Below, piece by piece: positions 23,167-28,429 of a DNA stretch of 64,000 nt; within the stretch, counting starts at the first letter, position 1; the number at the start of each line of letters is the position of its first letter. This DNA comes from Cladosporium halotolerans (Eukaryota): the NCBI RefSeq assembly GCF_011745625.1, contig NW_027191481.1, positions 1 through 64,000 on the forward strand, given 5' to 3'. A program made the position numbers and the translations under genes. The notes under the pieces were generated by a model. It worked only from the letters and a program-made list of their open reading frames with translations. It was not told the DNA's origin and ran no database searches.

Positions 23167-24465
23167 ATGCTCTTGCAACCTCCGACGTTCCCCAGTGCGA
23201 GAAGAGCTTTCCTTGTTTTCAACATGCTTGCCGTCGCAGCCGTCATCTTCTACCTCTTCGCCGTCTTTGGTGAAGGGAGGGCAGCGCCTCCGCATCTTGA
23301 TACACCATCGCATCACGACACAGATACAATGGCGCACGATGCAGGAGGCAAACCTACCAGTAATCTCGCCAACTACGCTCTACAAAAAGTTCTCGACGAT
23401 GCCAGCCCCATCTTCGGTCATTTCGAGGAGTCCAGCAAGTCTGATACATCGATTTGGATGAAGGCATACCCAGACGATACCAAGCTTGTCCATATGAACA
23501 TCCCAGGAACTCATGATGCAGCAACCTGGAACTACTCGAAAGCCACCCAACAGCGACTCGAGCCCATCGCTGCTCTAAACGGCATCTCAGAAGTCGACCC
23601 CAACAACTACCGCTGCCAGGACAATCCCTTCATTACCATGCTCAACGACGGCATCCGCGCATTCGACCTGCGCTACGCCCACGACGTCACAAACACAACC
23701 CTCGTCTTCTGGCACGGTATCGGCCTGCAATCGCAAACCGCAACCCTCGACTCCCTCCTCTTCGGCTTCTACGCCTGGCTCGATGCCCACCCCTCCGAAG
23801 CCCTCTTCCTCTCCTTCCAGTTCGAAGGCAACTCGATCCCCAATTCCGCCAACGACCTCAGCGTTCAATCCCTCCTCTACGCCTCCCTCACCTCCCCGGC
23901 CGCAAAACAATACATCTCTCAAACCAACACCCTCGCCACCCTCGGCTCTGCACGCGGCAAAGTCACCCTCCTCCGCCGCTTCGACCTCAATCTCCTCCCC
24001 TCCTCCCAATCTGCCAACTTCCCGGGCCTGCACTTCAGCCCAGCCGACTGGGGCGACAACCCACGCAACAACTCGCTTGTCTACGACGCCGAAACGCAAG
24101 CCGTCGCGCACATCCAGGACTACTACTCGCCCGAAGTCGCCTCGGGCGCCAGCGCGGAAGAGATCATCGGCTCGAAATTTGACGCCTGCACGGATTTCTT
24201 CGACTACGCTGCGTCGGACGCCGCGCCCGACGAGCTCTTCTGGAGCTTTGCGAGCAGCACGAAGATTGGGAATGAGCCGCCGAGCACGCCGAGGATTCAG
24301 GCGCTGGGGAATGGGACGGAGCTTACGCCGGAAGGAGGTGTCAATGATCGATTGGTGGAGTACTTGAAGGGGAAGCAAGGGAAGAGGCTGGGCATTGTGA
24401 TGTTTGATTTCTACGAGCAGCCGGGTGAGCTGCTTGAGACGTTCTTGGGGTTGTCGCCACCATGA
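23167..24465 (+). CDS. PI-PLC X-domain (PLC-like phosphodiesterase) protein, secreted or membrane-anchored
   Basis: Motifs WMKAYPD, MNIPGTHDA, CQ, MLNDGIRAFDLR, WLDAHPSE, TLGSARGKV, IQDYY and LGIVMFDF; hydrophobic N-terminus. Confidence 0.9.
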   Translation: MLLQPPTFPSARRAFLVFNMLAVAAVIFYLFAVFGEGRAAPPHLDTPSHHDTDTMAHDAGGKPTSNLANYALQKVLDDASPIFGHFEESSKSDTSIWMKAYPDDTKLVHMNIPGTHDAATWNYSKATQQRLEPIAALNGISEVDPNNYRCQDNPFITMLNDGIRAFDLRYAHDVTNTTLVFWHGIGLQSQTATLDSLLFGFYAWLDAHPSEALFLSFQFEGNSIPNSANDLSVQSLLYASLTSPAAKQYISQTNTLATLGSARGKVTLLRRFDLNLLPSSQSANFPGLHFSPADWGDNPRNNSLVYDAETQAVAHIQDYYSPEVASGASAEEIIGSKFDACTDFFDYAASDAAPDELFWSFASSTKIGNEPPSTPRIQALGNGTELTPEGGVNDRLVEYLKGKQGKRLGIVMFDFYEQPGELLETFLGLSPP

Positions 24466-25006
24466 GAGAAATAGAGGCGAGCAGAAACGCATGTAGATAA
24501 TCGATTTGTACCATGATCTGTCTACCATTGAACCAGCCATGCCTCCGTACTCTCACAGCTTCGCGGTGTTCATGTCTCGCCGGACTAGTGATCTACATTA
24601 GTGAGAAAAGGGCTTGAAGCAGCAGAGAACGAGCAACAAAATCACGAAGGGGTTTCTGCGCTCTCGCTGGGAAGCCCAGCAAACCGACGCTTGGTATTGC
24701 TGGTACGAGCTCAAATCAGGTAAAAGAGTCTCGTGTGACATCCGCATGCTACAACCGCATGCTCTCAATGGACAGCCCTCCGTTCTGCTAGTCAGGCTCG
24801 ATGGTATCAACCTCACAGCAACGGAGAGAAAGCTGCTGGTCAGATTCCCGTCTCCTCCTCTTTCTGGTCGATCTCGTCCACCGCTGTAAAGAGAAGGTTA
24901 CACGCCTTTGCGCGCTCTCGATGGGAAGCCTTGTTTCTCGACACCTGAGCACGATGGTACGAGCATCGCGGCAACAGAGAAACCCTTGCCATTTCAATGT
25001 TCTAAA

Positions 25007-25086
25007 GGATCCATCTTGGCCGCCACCTCATGAAAGAGGGGTGTTACACCCTGACACCGCGCTGAGGTGTGGATCCATCGCCAGGG
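25007..25086 (-). ncRNA. Putative HDV-like self-cleaving ribozyme, copy B
   Basis: Minus strand reads P1 CCCUGGC, J1/2 GAU, P2 GGAUCCAC, P3 ACC, L3 UCAGCGC, P3' GGU, P1' GUCAGGG, P1.1 UG, UAA, P4 CACCCCUC-UUUCAU-GAGGUGGCG, J4/2 GCCAA (putative catalytic C at 25019), P2' GAUGGAUCC. This is the nested double-pseudoknot order of HDV-like ribozymes. The C(+1)-G pair is atypical. Confidence 0.75.
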
Positions 25087-25130
25087 TGGGTTTTTATAGA
25101 GGTTTGCCCGCCTCTAGGGATCCTAACTAA

Positions 25131-26495
25131 TTAGTTAGGATAGTCGTTAGCAGAAGACTCACCTGGTGCAGGTGAAGTCGCAGGAGAGGCACCGGGTGCC
25201 GGTGCGGTAGCGTCTGACGCTGGTGCAGTCGTAGTCGAAGCACCAACGGTGGGTGCATTCGGGTCGTGAGGCTGGACGCCTTGGTCGCTGCCAGCATCTT
25301 GTGCTAACAGTAGTTGCGGGTTAGTAAACCGCGTCGAAGTATTCGCGTGCCAAGTCTGCGAGGAAGGTTGCGTTTTCTGCTTCTTCCTCCTCTTTGGAGG
25401 CCCTAAGGGAATAGGCTTGAGTCCCATCGTCGGGAATGTCATAACGTGACGATTGAACGCCATGATATCAGCTAAGGAAGTAGGTGTTTGAGTCGGTGCA
25501 GGTGCTGCACCTTGTCCATCACGAACAATGCCCCGGTCGTGATCTAATAGGGCAATGGTGAGTTTAATGGTATCATCCACTGGCCTTGTCCGCATTGAGT
25601 GTTTGATTAGCTCCATCGTTTCTGGTGTAGGATGCCAGTTTTCAGTATCGCCGGTCTTGGTTCTCCGCTCAGGCTCAGGAGAGAGAGAAAAGTCCGCCCA
25701 AGGGTTGACTCGAGGGCGTTGGCCAGATTGGATGGCGACATGCATGTCCATGTTCGCCTTCCAGCTGCGGACGTGGTGCGTGCCCTGGGCATCCGGTCGC
25801 GGGTGAACAGTCAAACATTGGCAGCACCAATGCACAGGGACAATGAATTTTCCATTTTCTTGTCTTTTGTTGTTAGTAGGCTCGATTGAGTCTGAAAAGT
25901 CAATGCGTCTCCTTGGACGTTCAGTAGGGTTTGCTTGATGTTCAGCAACCCGGTTACCTTGAGGGACAGCGGTATGTCTACTGTCCCGTTTCTTGAAAGA
26001 AGGCTCGATCGATGCGTCTTCGGTTTCGAAGCGTCTCTTCCGGCCTGTAGTGGCGGCTGCTTGATGCTCAGCAGCCTCAGTAGCTTGAGCGACATTGCCG
26101 TACGGCAAGGCCTGATGCTCAGTAGAAGTTCCCTCCGCGTGCGAAAGGGATTGCGCAGCAGACATATTGTCTGCTGCGGTAGAAGCAGCAGCGACATGAT
26201 AGTCACTTCTGTGAGAAGCCGGCGTGGCATCGCCACGCACGGTAGGTTGGAGCGCAGCCTCGGGCCGCGTACAATCGTCCTGCGCCATGGGGTCCGCCAT
26301 GGCGAGCGGCGGTGTGGAAAGGGAACGCGAACGTCGAGTGAAATTTGTGGAAGTAAACACAAAGCTCCAATTGCCGTGACGCATTACGCGCAGACGTGCC
26401 TGTATGTACGCACCGATCCTAGGTAACCTCACCTCACCCCGTCGTACCCACTCACCATACTCGTCTCCTTTACTCTCGCCGTCTTTTTCGTCCAT
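25131..26495 (-). CDS. Orphan ORF (~454 aa from first ATG; 484 aa from upstream TTG) between the two ribozyme folds
   Basis: Long uninterrupted frame with no recognisable family. It has an internal ~40-aa duplication, a CCQCxxxH...HH cluster and a basic NLS-like PPKRRKKQK. Codon usage is less GC3-biased than neighbouring genes. Confidence 0.55.
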   Translation of the reverse strand: MDEKDGESKGDEYGEWVRRGEVRLPRIGAYIQARLRVMRHGNWSFVFTSTNFTRRSRSLSTPPLAMADPMAQDDCTRPEAALQPTVRGDATPASHRSDYHVAAASTAADNMSAAQSLSHAEGTSTEHQALPYGNVAQATEAAEHQAAATTGRKRRFETEDASIEPSFKKRDSRHTAVPQGNRVAEHQANPTERPRRRIDFSDSIEPTNNKRQENGKFIVPVHWCCQCLTVHPRPDAQGTHHVRSWKANMDMHVAIQSGQRPRVNPWADFSLSPEPERRTKTGDTENWHPTPETMELIKHSMRTRPVDDTIKLTIALLDHDRGIVRDGQGAAPAPTQTPTSLADIMAFNRHVMTFPTMGLKPIPLGPPKRRKKQKTQPSSQTWHANTSTRFTNPQLLLAQDAGSDQGVQPHDPNAPTVGASTTTAPASDATAPAPGASPATSPAPGESSANDYPN

Positions 26496-26856
26496 GCGCC
26501 TGATGTGATTTAGTTCTATTGCAAGTTGCCGCTGTCTTCTGGTATAGAACGAAAACAATCGCACATGTGAAAGCTTTTGATACAAAGTCTCTAGGCGAAG
26601 ACTTCAGCTCGGAGACATAGCACGCTATCATGCTTTTCCATACGGGGAAAGGAACCTCGGGGAACTTTGATTCATGAAGCTCACTGGCGGCTCTGGCTGA
26701 TATAAGAACTCGGCATATTCGATGGGCCTTGTTGAATGAGAAGGGCAATTGGCTCATTTCAATGCTCCAACGTTAGCAAGTCACTGGACGGTTGAAACCA
26801 TTCTGTCGTGTTGTGAAGGGTTTATTTGAAAGTATCAACTGTGCGTATATATGCTT

Positions 26857-26934
26857 GGATCCATCTTGGCCGTCACTCGATTCGAGTACCGTTACACCCT
26901 GACACCACGTTGAGGTGCGGATCCATCGCCAGGG
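26857..26934 (-). ncRNA. Putative HDV-like self-cleaving ribozyme, copy A
   Basis: Minus strand reads P1 CCCUGGC, GAU, P2 GGAUCCGC, P3 ACC, L3 UCAACGU, GGU, P1' GUCAGGG, P1.1 UG, UAA, P4 CGGUACUCG-AAU-CGAGUGACG, J4/2 GCCAA (putative catalytic C at 26869), P2' GAUGGAUCC. Same topology as copy B with a different but still paired P4. Confidence 0.75.
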
Positions 26935-26966
26935 AGGGTTTTTAACGAGGTTTGCCCTTGCCTCGC

Positions 26967-27380
26967 CCACCTCTTACTGGTGGGGCCCTTCCTCCACGCC
27001 CTCTACACCCTCTATCCTCCATCTTCCCATCCTCCCCGTCCTCCCCAACAATGGTGGCGCCACCATTCTTGCCCCTCCCTCCTCCTTCCTCCACGCCCTC
27101 TACACCCTCCATCCTCCATCCTCCCCGTCCTCCCCAACTACCATCCTCCTTCCTCCCATCCTCCAACCTCCCATCCTCCAACCTCCCATCCTCCAGCCTC
27201 CATCCTGCGTCCTCCCCCCTCTCCATACCCCCTCCTCCCTCCTCCCCAGCCTCCATCCTCCATCTTTCCCATCTTCCCATCCTCCATATCCTTCCCAGCC
27301 TACCCAGCCTCCGTCCTTCCTACCACAACCCTCCACCCTCTCCACCCTCTCCATCCTCCCCCGTCCTCCCCATCCTCCCC
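26967..27380. repeat. Polypyrimidine/polypurine low-complexity tract (CCATCCTCC-type units; GGA-rich on the minus strand)
   Basis: ~410 bp that is almost G-free on the plus strand. It includes a ~15-bp unit CCTCCCATCCTCCAA about three times (~27152-27196) and a 25-bp duplication (26988-27012 and 27085-27109). Confidence 0.9.
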
Positions 27381-27875
27381 TGTCGAGCGATATCGAGAGT
27401 GTTGCTGAGTTCCGGTTCGTATCGATCGGGGCGCTGTATCGGGTACTGAATAATCTGTCGGGTTATTTCGAGGGCGTTGTCAAGCTGCGGTTAGTATCCA
27501 TCGGGGCACTACATACGTCTTTGAGAGGCTCTCGGGAGGTGTCGAAGGTGTCGCTGAGTTCCGGTTCGTATCGATCGGGGCGCTGTATCGGGTGCTGAAT
27601 AATCTGTCGGGTCATTTCGAGGGGGTTGTCAAGCTGCGGTTAGTATCAATCGGGGCACTACATACGTCGTTGAGAGGCTCTCGGGAGGTGTCGAAGGTGT
27701 CGCTGGGCTGCGGTTCGTATCGGTCGTGTCGCTGTGTCGGGTGCCGGAAGGCTGTCGGGAGACGTCGAGGGTGTCGGTGAGCGGCGGTTCGTATCGATCG
27801 TGATAGCTATATCGGTTGTTGAAAGGCTGTCGAGAGATGTCGAGGGTGTTGCTGAGCTACGGGTTGTACCAATGA
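27380..27875. repeat. Tandem array of 74-75-bp units (~6.5 copies) with a 149-bp higher-order dimer
   Basis: Units start at 27401, 27476, 27550, 27625, 27699, 27773 and 27848, with core GCTGAG..CGGTTCGTATCGATCGG. Segments 27401-27549 and 27550-27698 are near-identical. Confidence 0.92.
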
Positions 27876-28429
27876 TTATATGAAATGAAAATCGCGCCTT
27901 TGCGAGTGACAATGTAGAGGCGGGAACAGAAAGTTGCGAGCGCAGGTGAAAATTTTTATTGCCTCGTGTGCGACGGGACCGGGATGGCTAATCCCGCTCT
28001 CAGGAAGAGTGGAAGGAGCGCGCGTGAGGAAGGAGCGCTCGGGTGCCGCCCGCTTGGTGGCGGTGAAGTGAGGTTAGGTTGGCACGTGATGAGGCCTGAA
28101 CATATCCAACTTACCGCGCGACCCGACGCTATTGGTAAGACAGTCGCCATTCTTGTTGCCATGAACTTCCTGTACGTGAGACGGTTCACTTGCATGGAGT
28201 GGTAGTAATGGAGTGTAATAGTGTATGAATTAAGAAGGAACATTTCATACTGTGTAAAGCAAAGCAGCTAGCGGTGAAAAGCTACTCACAGGCCCTAAAT
28301 TACTCCAGAATCCATCTTATAACGAAAACCCCAGGTTCACCATCGTTCTGATCGTCGTACCTTCACTGTCTGCCAGCCGTGCTGTGAGGGTTATGGATGA
28401 AGTCCACGGGGTTTCAATGGCTGTGCCAA

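Follow-up and report, generated by a model that had tools for sequence, protein, structure and literature searches.

Hepatitis delta virus-like ribozyme folds bracket a cellular gene in Cladosporium halotolerans and may form self-cleaving 3'-end or boundary modules

We analysed a 64,000-nt stretch of DNA from the fungus Cladosporium halotolerans (RefSeq assembly GCF_011745625.1, contig NW_027191481.1, positions 1 to 64,000 of the forward strand; hereafter the window), in which a direct repeat brackets a protein-coding gene, P0001, on the minus strand. An earlier note on this DNA had proposed that both repeat copies fold as hepatitis delta virus (HDV)-like ribozymes and that the segment between them may be a self-excising coding RNA. 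The repeat of about 110 bp described there is real: pairwise BLAST aligns copy A (26966–26857) with copy B (25116–25007), both on the minus strand, at 83% identity over 111 columns (E 3e-24), and a repeat search recovers the same pair with a spacing of 1848/1850 nt. The similarity starts about 30 nt 5' of the predicted cut and stops exactly at the final base of the ribozyme (GGATCC). Because P1, J1/2 and P2 are identical in both copies, the pair probably arose by local duplication. The central features of the locus are the following.

26857–26934, minus strand: core of HDV-like ribozyme A, with the cut predicted 5' of 26934 and the candidate catalytic C at 26869 (from Rfam family RF02682, the covariance model R1 described below and pair tables)
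25131–26300, minus strand: gene P0001, 389 aa, with the start at 26300 matching the N-termini of its relatives and the stop codon TAA at 25133–25131
25007–25086, minus strand: core of HDV-like ribozyme B, with the cut predicted 5' of 25086 and the candidate catalytic C at 25019 (from RF02682, R1 and pair tables)
25087–26934, minus strand: RNA of 1848 nt that would be released from a transcript crossing both ribozymes, as follows from the two predicted cut sites

Analysis of the two copies revealed that every HDV-like element assigned by the note (P1, P2, P3, L3, P1.1, P4 and J4/2) is present at its proposed position. P1 consists of 7 bp (CCCUGGC/GUCAGGG) with a C-G pair at the cut, P2 of 6–7 bp, P3 of ACC/GGU and P1.1 of CA/UG, while L3 comprises 7 nt (UCAACGU and UCAGCGC in the two copies) and J4/2 reads G-C-C-A-A and holds the candidate catalytic C. 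In A and B, P4 forms a hairpin whose stem is interrupted near the base by one bulge or a G-A mismatch. Pairing is maintained where the copies differ, as the note had stated: P4 is rewritten and still paired, and pair 7 of P2 is G-U in A and A-U in B.

A relative outside the window, on the metagenome contig L069 (GC 0.53), provided a third full sequence, with 63 nt aligning at 87% identity to A and 83% to B and nothing else in common with the window. P3, the 7-nt L3, P1.1 and the GGCCAAG segment are invariant across A, B and L069. P2 reads GGAUCC(G/A):UGGAUCC in the window and UGAUCUG:CAGAUCA in L069, which amounts to two full compensatory changes besides pair 7 (G-C in L069), and P4 differs in sequence in all three, forming a 4-bp stem in L069, yet is paired in each. 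In all three sequences, column 55 is an unpaired C between P2 (columns 48–54) and P3 (columns 56–58), and the cleavage-site pair 38–75 is C-G. The structure scored across A, B and L069 has 28 pairs in six helices (the leader hairpin described below, P1, P2 as a pseudoknot, P3, P1.1 and the base of P4). Standard pairs fill 97.6% of its 84 pair cells, against 32–42% when the 3' partners are slid by 1–3 columns, six pairs are changed on both sides (three in P2, two in the leader hairpin and one in P4), and three of 500 shuffles match the observed pairing and covariation values. The note had named homologues lacking the P1–P4 pairing as evidence that would speak against a ribozyme; L069 instead keeps the fold through compensatory changes.

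Searches with general and specific models gave a graded picture. A 27-nt core pattern has two matches in the window, A and B, and none in 100 shuffles. The covariance model R1, built from copies A and B together with L069 and run on the window with filters off, finds only A (131.5 bits) and B (115.3 bits), the next match scoring 12.2 bits (E 0.77). Among the 4227 Rfam families in an E-value scan of both strands of 24700–27300, the two best matches both belong to RF02682. In this 2.6-kb search, cmscan places model positions 1–74 of 74 on 26934–26857 in copy A (25.6 bits, E 0.057) and on 25086–25007 in copy B (21.4 bits, E 0.51), and the two alignments begin exactly at the cuts that the note had placed at 26934 and 25086, 1848 nt apart. 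The search with HDV models that the note had suggested succeeded in giving full-length alignments and fell short in score: both values lie below the RF02682 gathering score of 44, the window has no match at Rfam gathering thresholds, and a search of the whole window lists copy A only at E 1.4 and copy B not at all. Because of these scores, the copies are not filed under this bacterial family, and since the Rfam scores alone are insufficient, the ribozyme assignment rests on the comparative evidence.

Pseudoknot-free folding of the cores is no better than that of shuffles (z 0.04, 0.42 and -0.41), a thermodynamic measure that is uninformative here because the fold is a pseudoknot. Such near-zero z-scores and the sub-gathering Rfam scores are what would be expected of a chance look-alike, that is, a local duplication that fits the HDV descriptor and does not cleave. 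We regard this explanation as very unlikely, given that all helices of the nested double pseudoknot can form in each of the three sequences, with the six double changes and the poor pairing of slid registers, and that the positions invariant in the window family are those conserved in at least 100 bacterial HDV-type ribozymes that the same core pattern retrieves. It is very probable that copies A and B are genuine HDV-like ribozymes on the strand of the open reading frame (ORF), with self-cleavage predicted, and a read-through transcript would very probably be cut at both sites.

The conserved unit extends beyond the ribozyme on its 5' side, and the elements around the two cores are as follows.

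26935–26966, minus strand: leader A, a hairpin of GCGAGG (26966–26961) with CCUCGU (26950–26945), then UAAAAACCCU; a TAA at 26944–26942 lies 7 nt before the cut
25087–25116, minus strand: leader B, a hairpin of UAGAGG (25116–25111) with CCUCUA (25102–25097), then UAAAAACCCA; a TAA at 25096–25094 lies 7 nt before the cut
26966–26985, minus strand: second hairpin directly 5' of leader A (CCCACC/GGUGGG), seen in the minimum free energy (MFE) and centroid folds
25120–25141, minus strand: palindromic hairpin holding the stop codon of the unspliced ORF, from folding
26846–26851, minus strand: TATATA, 6 nt past the 3' end of ribozyme A, read from the sequence
26826–26821, minus strand: AATAAA after ribozyme A, read from the sequence

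Each module of about 110 nt has the same order of one or two hairpins, an A-rich tract and the ribozyme. The leader hairpin pairs CGAGG with CCUCG in A and L069, and a compensatory change gives AGAGG with CCUCU in B; it is followed by an A-rich tract, (G/U)(U/A)UAAA(A/C)AAC, that resembles a poly(A) signal (UAUAAA, GUUAAA). A second hairpin precedes the leader hairpin in both A and B, and the segment 25087–25145, which comprises leader B and the palindromic hairpin, folds at -17.2 kcal/mol (z -3.19). Conservation among A, B and L069 lies 5' of the cut; past the last base of the ribozyme nothing is kept except TATATA in A and L069, at a distance of 4–6 nt (4 nt in L069). That the similarity begins about 30 nt before the cut and ends with the ribozyme suggests that the module acts on the RNA upstream of it.

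Analysis of the gene between the ribozymes indicated that it is not the orphan ORF of the earlier note: a HMMER search of 1.84 billion representative sequences returns 13 relatives of P0001 at E <= 1e-3, among them a hypothetical protein of Cladosporium fusiforme (a relative from this species is KAM0718012.1), and the gene belongs to an ordinary fungal family. A word-indexed search gave the relative P0003 (377 aa, 75% identity). The reading frame is open from 26585, and the relatives begin at the ATG at 26300 (MADPMAQ...). In the alignment of the family, C159, C162, H166, H176 and H187 are invariant within a WCxQCLxCHP...H...H motif, this Cys/His core is followed by a helical hairpin, and a conserved stretch resembling a nuclear localization signal (QPTGPPxKKRK), one of several basic stretches of this kind in the protein, lies near the C-terminus. 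P0001 matches no Pfam family and has no Foldseek match in the PDB at E <= 0.001, its Atlas leads (zf-BED-like) score below 0.9, and its AlphaFold model is confident for residues 131–205 and 221–260 only. Judged by its homologues, P0001 is a real, fast-evolving cellular gene and no strict orphan, and its product is probably a nuclear zinc-binding protein.

The genes around P0001 are ordinary ones, encoding an Nma111-type protease, a PI-PLC-like protein, Pil1 (29522–28430, minus strand) and an alcohol dehydrogenase (ADH). The PI-PLC-like gene converges on P0001 and ends at 24465, 540 nt from module B, with short ORFs only between ribozyme B and this convergent gene.

The stop codon of P0001 lies 44 nt before cut B, and a candidate intron may reduce this distance further.

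25114–25162, minus strand: candidate 49-nt terminal intron (GTGAGT..CTAAC..TAG), from strict intron criteria

Under the strict intron criteria, the two strands of the window together yield four donors, where 50 resamples predict 0.54. If the candidate intron were spliced, the ORF would end ...PEAGKPL at the TAA at 25096–25094, 7 nt before cut B, and the leader B hairpin would be retained, since the CAG at the end of exon 1 would stand in for the UAG that closes the intron. The resemblance of the spliced C-terminus (..PEAGKPL) to that of P0005 (..PEEAGFQKLT) is suggestive and was set aside as too short to count. The proximity of the stop codon to cut B, 44 nt or 7 nt if the intron is spliced, would place module B at the 3' end of the P0001 mRNA.

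Comparison with related strains (contigs of runs X1, X2, X20 and X3, all probably DNA) revealed that in three runs the 489 nt of coding sequence at 25140–25628 are replaced by 453 letters that give no alignment at >=88%, while both flanks align. The replacement is 36 nt, or 12 codons, shorter, consistent with the 377 aa of P0003, which by estimates made by eye from the alignment is about 94% identical to P0001 over residues 1–224 and about 45% beyond. The C-terminal third of the gene shows mosaic divergence between strains. The contigs of the four runs show no starts, ends or joints with a bearing on cleavage or on circles. Leader B and the start of ribozyme B still align at >=88% in the related strains, and because they align where the adjoining coding sequence does not, the module appears to be under selection.

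On the 5' side of the gene, 556 nt with 11 ATGs separate ribozyme A from the start codon of P0001, and the strains carry indels in this interval, a deletion of 16 nt and an insertion of 4 nt. This stretch would therefore be a poor leader for translation from an RNA starting at cut A. Its properties disfavour 5'-end processing, in which ribozyme A would free the message from an upstream co-transcript and aid its cap-independent translation, with B doing likewise for a downstream unit. This has been proposed for the retrotransposons R2, RTE and L1Tc, the role is documented for HDV-like ribozymes in eukaryotic retroelements (PMC6765202), and ribozyme A does lie upstream of the ORF on the same strand. 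The strain indels, the conservation upstream of the cut instead of downstream of the ribozyme, the presence of only short ORFs after ribozyme B, and the lack of an ORF for a reverse transcriptase (RT) or endonuclease (EN) nevertheless make this explanation quite unlikely. The note had also considered a ribozyme-processed polycistronic locus, of which the ribozyme-processed part survives and the polycistron does not.

What was observed in silico, namely the folds, how they are conserved and where they lie with respect to the gene, led us to a reading that we hold tentatively, giving it somewhat less than an even chance: the modules would be self-cleaving 3'-end or boundary elements of RNA polymerase II (Pol II) transcripts, acting on the RNA that arrives from upstream. 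The ribozyme would fold as Pol II passes through the module and would cut at its own 5' edge, leaving the upstream RNA with a hairpin and an end of the form ...AAAAACCC(A/U) that bears a 2',3'-cyclic phosphate, and the downstream read-through RNA would be severed. Module B would create or supersede the 3' end of the P0001 mRNA, resulting in a tail-less message or lowered expression, and would also block read-through toward the convergent PI-PLC-like gene. Module A would do likewise for transcripts from the repeat-rich region 27000–28400, which precedes the P0001 promoter. What looks like a bracketed gene could then reflect two boundary modules and not one excisable element, an arrangement we likewise favour with reserve, at a little below even confidence.

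Several observations weigh against the boundary-module reading, beginning with those on ribozyme identity: besides the low Rfam scores and the unremarkable pseudoknot-free folding, the comparative support consists of three full sequences in an alignment fitted to our own model. Cleavage, transcription through the modules and any effect on the mRNA are inferred from the sequence. A 5'-OH end is no direct substrate for the torpedo nuclease Rat1, which leaves a role in termination uncertain. The rule of a stop codon just upstream of the module rests on one verified gene, P0001, because the ORFs upstream of module A and of the L069 module are unverified: there is no verified gene upstream of module A, where the ORF ending in leader A is of low complexity and without a Pfam match, and the ORF 5' of the L069 module has no homologues. 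Finally, the TATATA past ribozyme A, which together with that of L069 was counted in favour of an action on the upstream RNA, could be a promoter element (a TATA box for the gene downstream) or a 3'-end signal of the yeast type.

The region upstream of module A has features of its own. Adjoining the module, 26986–27375 is a low-complexity array, C/T-rich on the plus strand, with periods of 7, 9 and 15 nt, in which three plus-strand frames and one minus-strand frame are open, the latter ending at the TAA of leader A. Farther upstream of ribozyme A, 27380–27860 holds a minus-strand tandem repeat of 149 nt in 3.1 copies. Intron signals of the yeast consensus (GTATGT .. TACTAAC .. CAG) recur in every unit; the donors lie at 27665 and 27516, and the candidate introns would measure 32, 62 or 71 nt. 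Like the 149-nt period, these lengths are 2 mod 3, which would keep repeated exons in frame, and the array may be a gene for a repeat protein or a spliced non-coding RNA gene.

To place the module among its relatives, we compared the window with related strains and with collections of contigs. In the strains, excess contigs stack on the repeat core, and loose-end contigs at 25043 and 25110 join the core to flanks unlike those of A or B; contig breaks inside repeats are expected assembler behaviour. One loose-end copy carries yet another paired P4 together with a GGCUAAG junction, and a loose-end copy in run X20 also keeps the 5' strand of the leader hairpin. The 6 kb of L069 contain a single module, and a search of its six frames gave no P0001 relative. 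At 2914–2942 of that contig, an extra leader hairpin and A-rich tract (CGAGG..CCUCG AUAAAAC) stand in tandem, just 5' of the one that precedes the ribozyme. Because further copies have unrelated flanks and L069 carries a single copy, the module is, on this evidence, a dispersed unit in its own right, and the repeated element does not include the gene that lies between A and B.

Dispersal of this kind raises the possibility of a short repeat without a role for the host, a 110-nt selfish or relic element that was scattered and locally duplicated and may cleave. In addition to the several copies with unrelated flanks and the one in another fungus-like contig (L069), the 'widely variable gene associations' reported by Li and Breaker for fungal ribozymes (PMC5640933) would agree with it. 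We consider it unlikely, since P4 has varied while remaining paired and P2 and the leader hairpin show compensatory changes, which is the pattern of old selected copies and not of recent transposition; moreover, the module is alignable where neighbouring coding sequence is not, and no terminal repeats or target-site duplications (TSDs) were found.

Wider pattern searches point mostly to bacteria. A relaxed core pattern matches at least 122 loci in metagenome contigs, which by sequence are mostly of the gut-bacterial Faecalibacterium prausnitzii type, and among the matches listed only L069 resembles the ribozyme family of the window. The exact family pattern has no match in the metagenome, genome and viral contig collections. 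The sole match of the relaxed pattern in genome contigs, L123 from a metagenome-assembled genome of Verrucomicrobia, lacks GGCYAAG and was rejected as chance. Among the matches listed, some gut-metagenome contigs carry two same-strand ribozymes of the F. prausnitzii type (L056/L057, L079/L080 and L036/L037), spaced by 1.3 kb in L079/L080 and by 2.7 kb in L056/L057, so bracketing of short segments by such predicted ribozymes also occurs in bacteria or their phages.

We next consider the self-excising coding RNA of the earlier note, here in a form in which the 1848-nt unit is released, is circularised by a host ligase and behaves like a coding retrozyme or an endogenised viroid- or delta-like agent. 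Two same-strand ribozymes spaced by 1848 nt do enclose an intact ORF. The unit is near the size of a deltavirus, in which the HDV antigenomic ribozyme likewise lies just past the ORF. The ends expected after cleavage, a 5'-OH and a 2',3'-cyclic phosphate, would be those of the fungal variants (PMC5640933). Folded as a circle, the unit is also more stable than its shuffles, with an MFE of -625.2 kcal/mol and a z of -4.1 against 20 dinucleotide shuffles. The rod-like structure that the note had asked about is, however, lacking in the fold: the fraction of pairs on one rod axis is 0.18, against a shuffle mean of 0.21 and maximum of 0.34 (n = 20), and the paired fraction is 0.60 against 0.59, so that the modelled circle is no more rod-like than shuffled sequence.

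Hallmarks of a mobile element are likewise lacking at the locus. The repeat ends share no k-mer of >=4 nt within 12 nt that could be a TSD, no TGG-starting primer-binding site (PBS) directly follows 26857, and among the 50 nt before 25116 there is no stretch of >=8 purines that could serve as a polypurine tract (PPT). The TSD search and the survey of neighbouring genes bear out the statement of the note that no RT, endonuclease or TSD is found here, with neither enzyme encoded by P0001, whose relatives are hypothetical proteins, or by the neighbouring genes. The plus strand holds no ribozyme of any Rfam class in the E-value scan of both strands of 24700–27300, in which the only ribozyme matches are the two minus-strand HDV ones. 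The ORF belongs to a cellular gene family, L069 has the ribozyme module alone in one copy, and the P4 elements of A and B are wholly different, which is unexpected for terminal redundancy made from one template. A circle would also rebuild the leader–ribozyme junction and could recut itself, and HDV-type ribozymes ligate poorly. Taken together, these findings do not support a protein-coding retrozyme, a viroid-like or delta-like element or a circular RNA, and we regard the excised coding RNA as highly improbable. In a more limited form of the idea, which we hold to be very doubtful, a transcript crossing both ribozymes would yield the 1848-nt RNA without cap or tail, starting with a folded ribozyme and ending in hairpins and a cyclic phosphate, to be translated as such or circularised by the fungal tRNA ligase.

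Comparison with known systems returns us to the boundary-module reading and to the class in which its ribozymes fall. Li and Breaker (2017, BMC Genomics, PMC5640933) described 230 HDV-type variants in 26 fungal species; two of these were shown to self-cleave in vitro, leaving 5'-OH and 2',3'-cyclic phosphate ends. The hallmarks given there are a C-G pair at the cut, an extra nucleotide, usually C, between P2 and P3, and partial replacement of P4 by a loop E. The predicted ribozymes of the window fit these fungal variants in the C-G pair at the cut and in the extra C between P2 and P3, have a plain hairpin with one bulge or mismatch as P4, and share with them the nested double pseudoknot and the fungal host. 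They differ in that the species list, in the portion of that paper available, names Eurotiomycetes, whereas the window comes from a Dothideomycete, and in that the variants were published there with 'widely variable gene associations' and without a conserved leader hairpin, a paired arrangement or a function, of which the window has the first two. A full-text literature search found no later paper titled on the function of fungal HDV-like ribozymes. The F. prausnitzii type, RF02682, is the best covariance model at full length and has the P3/L3 core (CACCUC..CG.GGUG), YAAC and GGCYAAG in common with the window, while the window differs in a J1/4 that is one nucleotide shorter, C-G for G-C at the cut, a eukaryotic host and sub-gathering scores.

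For the placement of a ribozyme in the 3' part of a cellular coding transcript, the nearest parallel is the hammerhead ribozyme in the 3' untranslated region of mammalian Clec2 genes (Martick et al. 2008, cited in PMC6765202), which would separate the ORF from the poly(A) tail. That ribozyme belongs to another class and kingdom, and the predicted ribozyme B of the window lies only 44 nt from the stop codon with a conserved upstream hairpin. The 5' ribozymes of non-LTR (long terminal repeat) retrotransposons (R2, RTE, Baggins and L1Tc) are of the same class and bring about co-transcriptional release from a longer transcript (PMC6765202 and PMC3185411), but the window has no RT or EN ORF, its conservation lies upstream of the cut, and a cellular gene stands between its ribozymes. 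Retrozymes and Penelope-like elements are similar in having direct repeats, each with a ribozyme, that flank a unit of about 1–3 kb. Theirs, however, are hammerheads in LTR-like repeats, while the window has HDV-type ribozymes, a coding unit, no TSD, PBS or PPT found, and modules that also occur singly. The HDV antigenome encodes a basic nuclear protein, and close behind this ORF come a motif resembling a poly(A) signal and an HDV-type ribozyme, in a unit of about 1.7–1.8 kb. The window resembles it in the layout of ORF, poly(A)-like motif and ribozyme and in unit size, and differs from it in having no ribozyme of opposite polarity and no rod fold, in an ORF with cellular relatives, and in a chromosomal position between housekeeping genes.

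The predicted ribozymes of the window are new members of a known fungal class. Were the 1848-nt excision true, the locus would yield a chromosomal, ribozyme-bounded, possibly circular mRNA for a nuclear zinc-finger-like protein; were the modules inert repeats, it would be an ordinary one. As it stands, the locus provides a concrete and testable case in which the stop codon of a verified coding gene precedes a predicted ribozyme cut by 44 nt (or 7 nt if spliced), and in which the module has a conserved hairpin and a poly(A)-signal-like tract on the side of the upstream RNA. The arrangement offers a good experimental entry to what fungal HDV-like ribozymes do. If the mRNA 3' end were made or superseded by cleavage, this would be a natural eukaryotic case of ribozyme-made mRNA ends or of insulation between Pol II units, and such a 3'-end role, if true, would point to a general role for fungal ribozymes.

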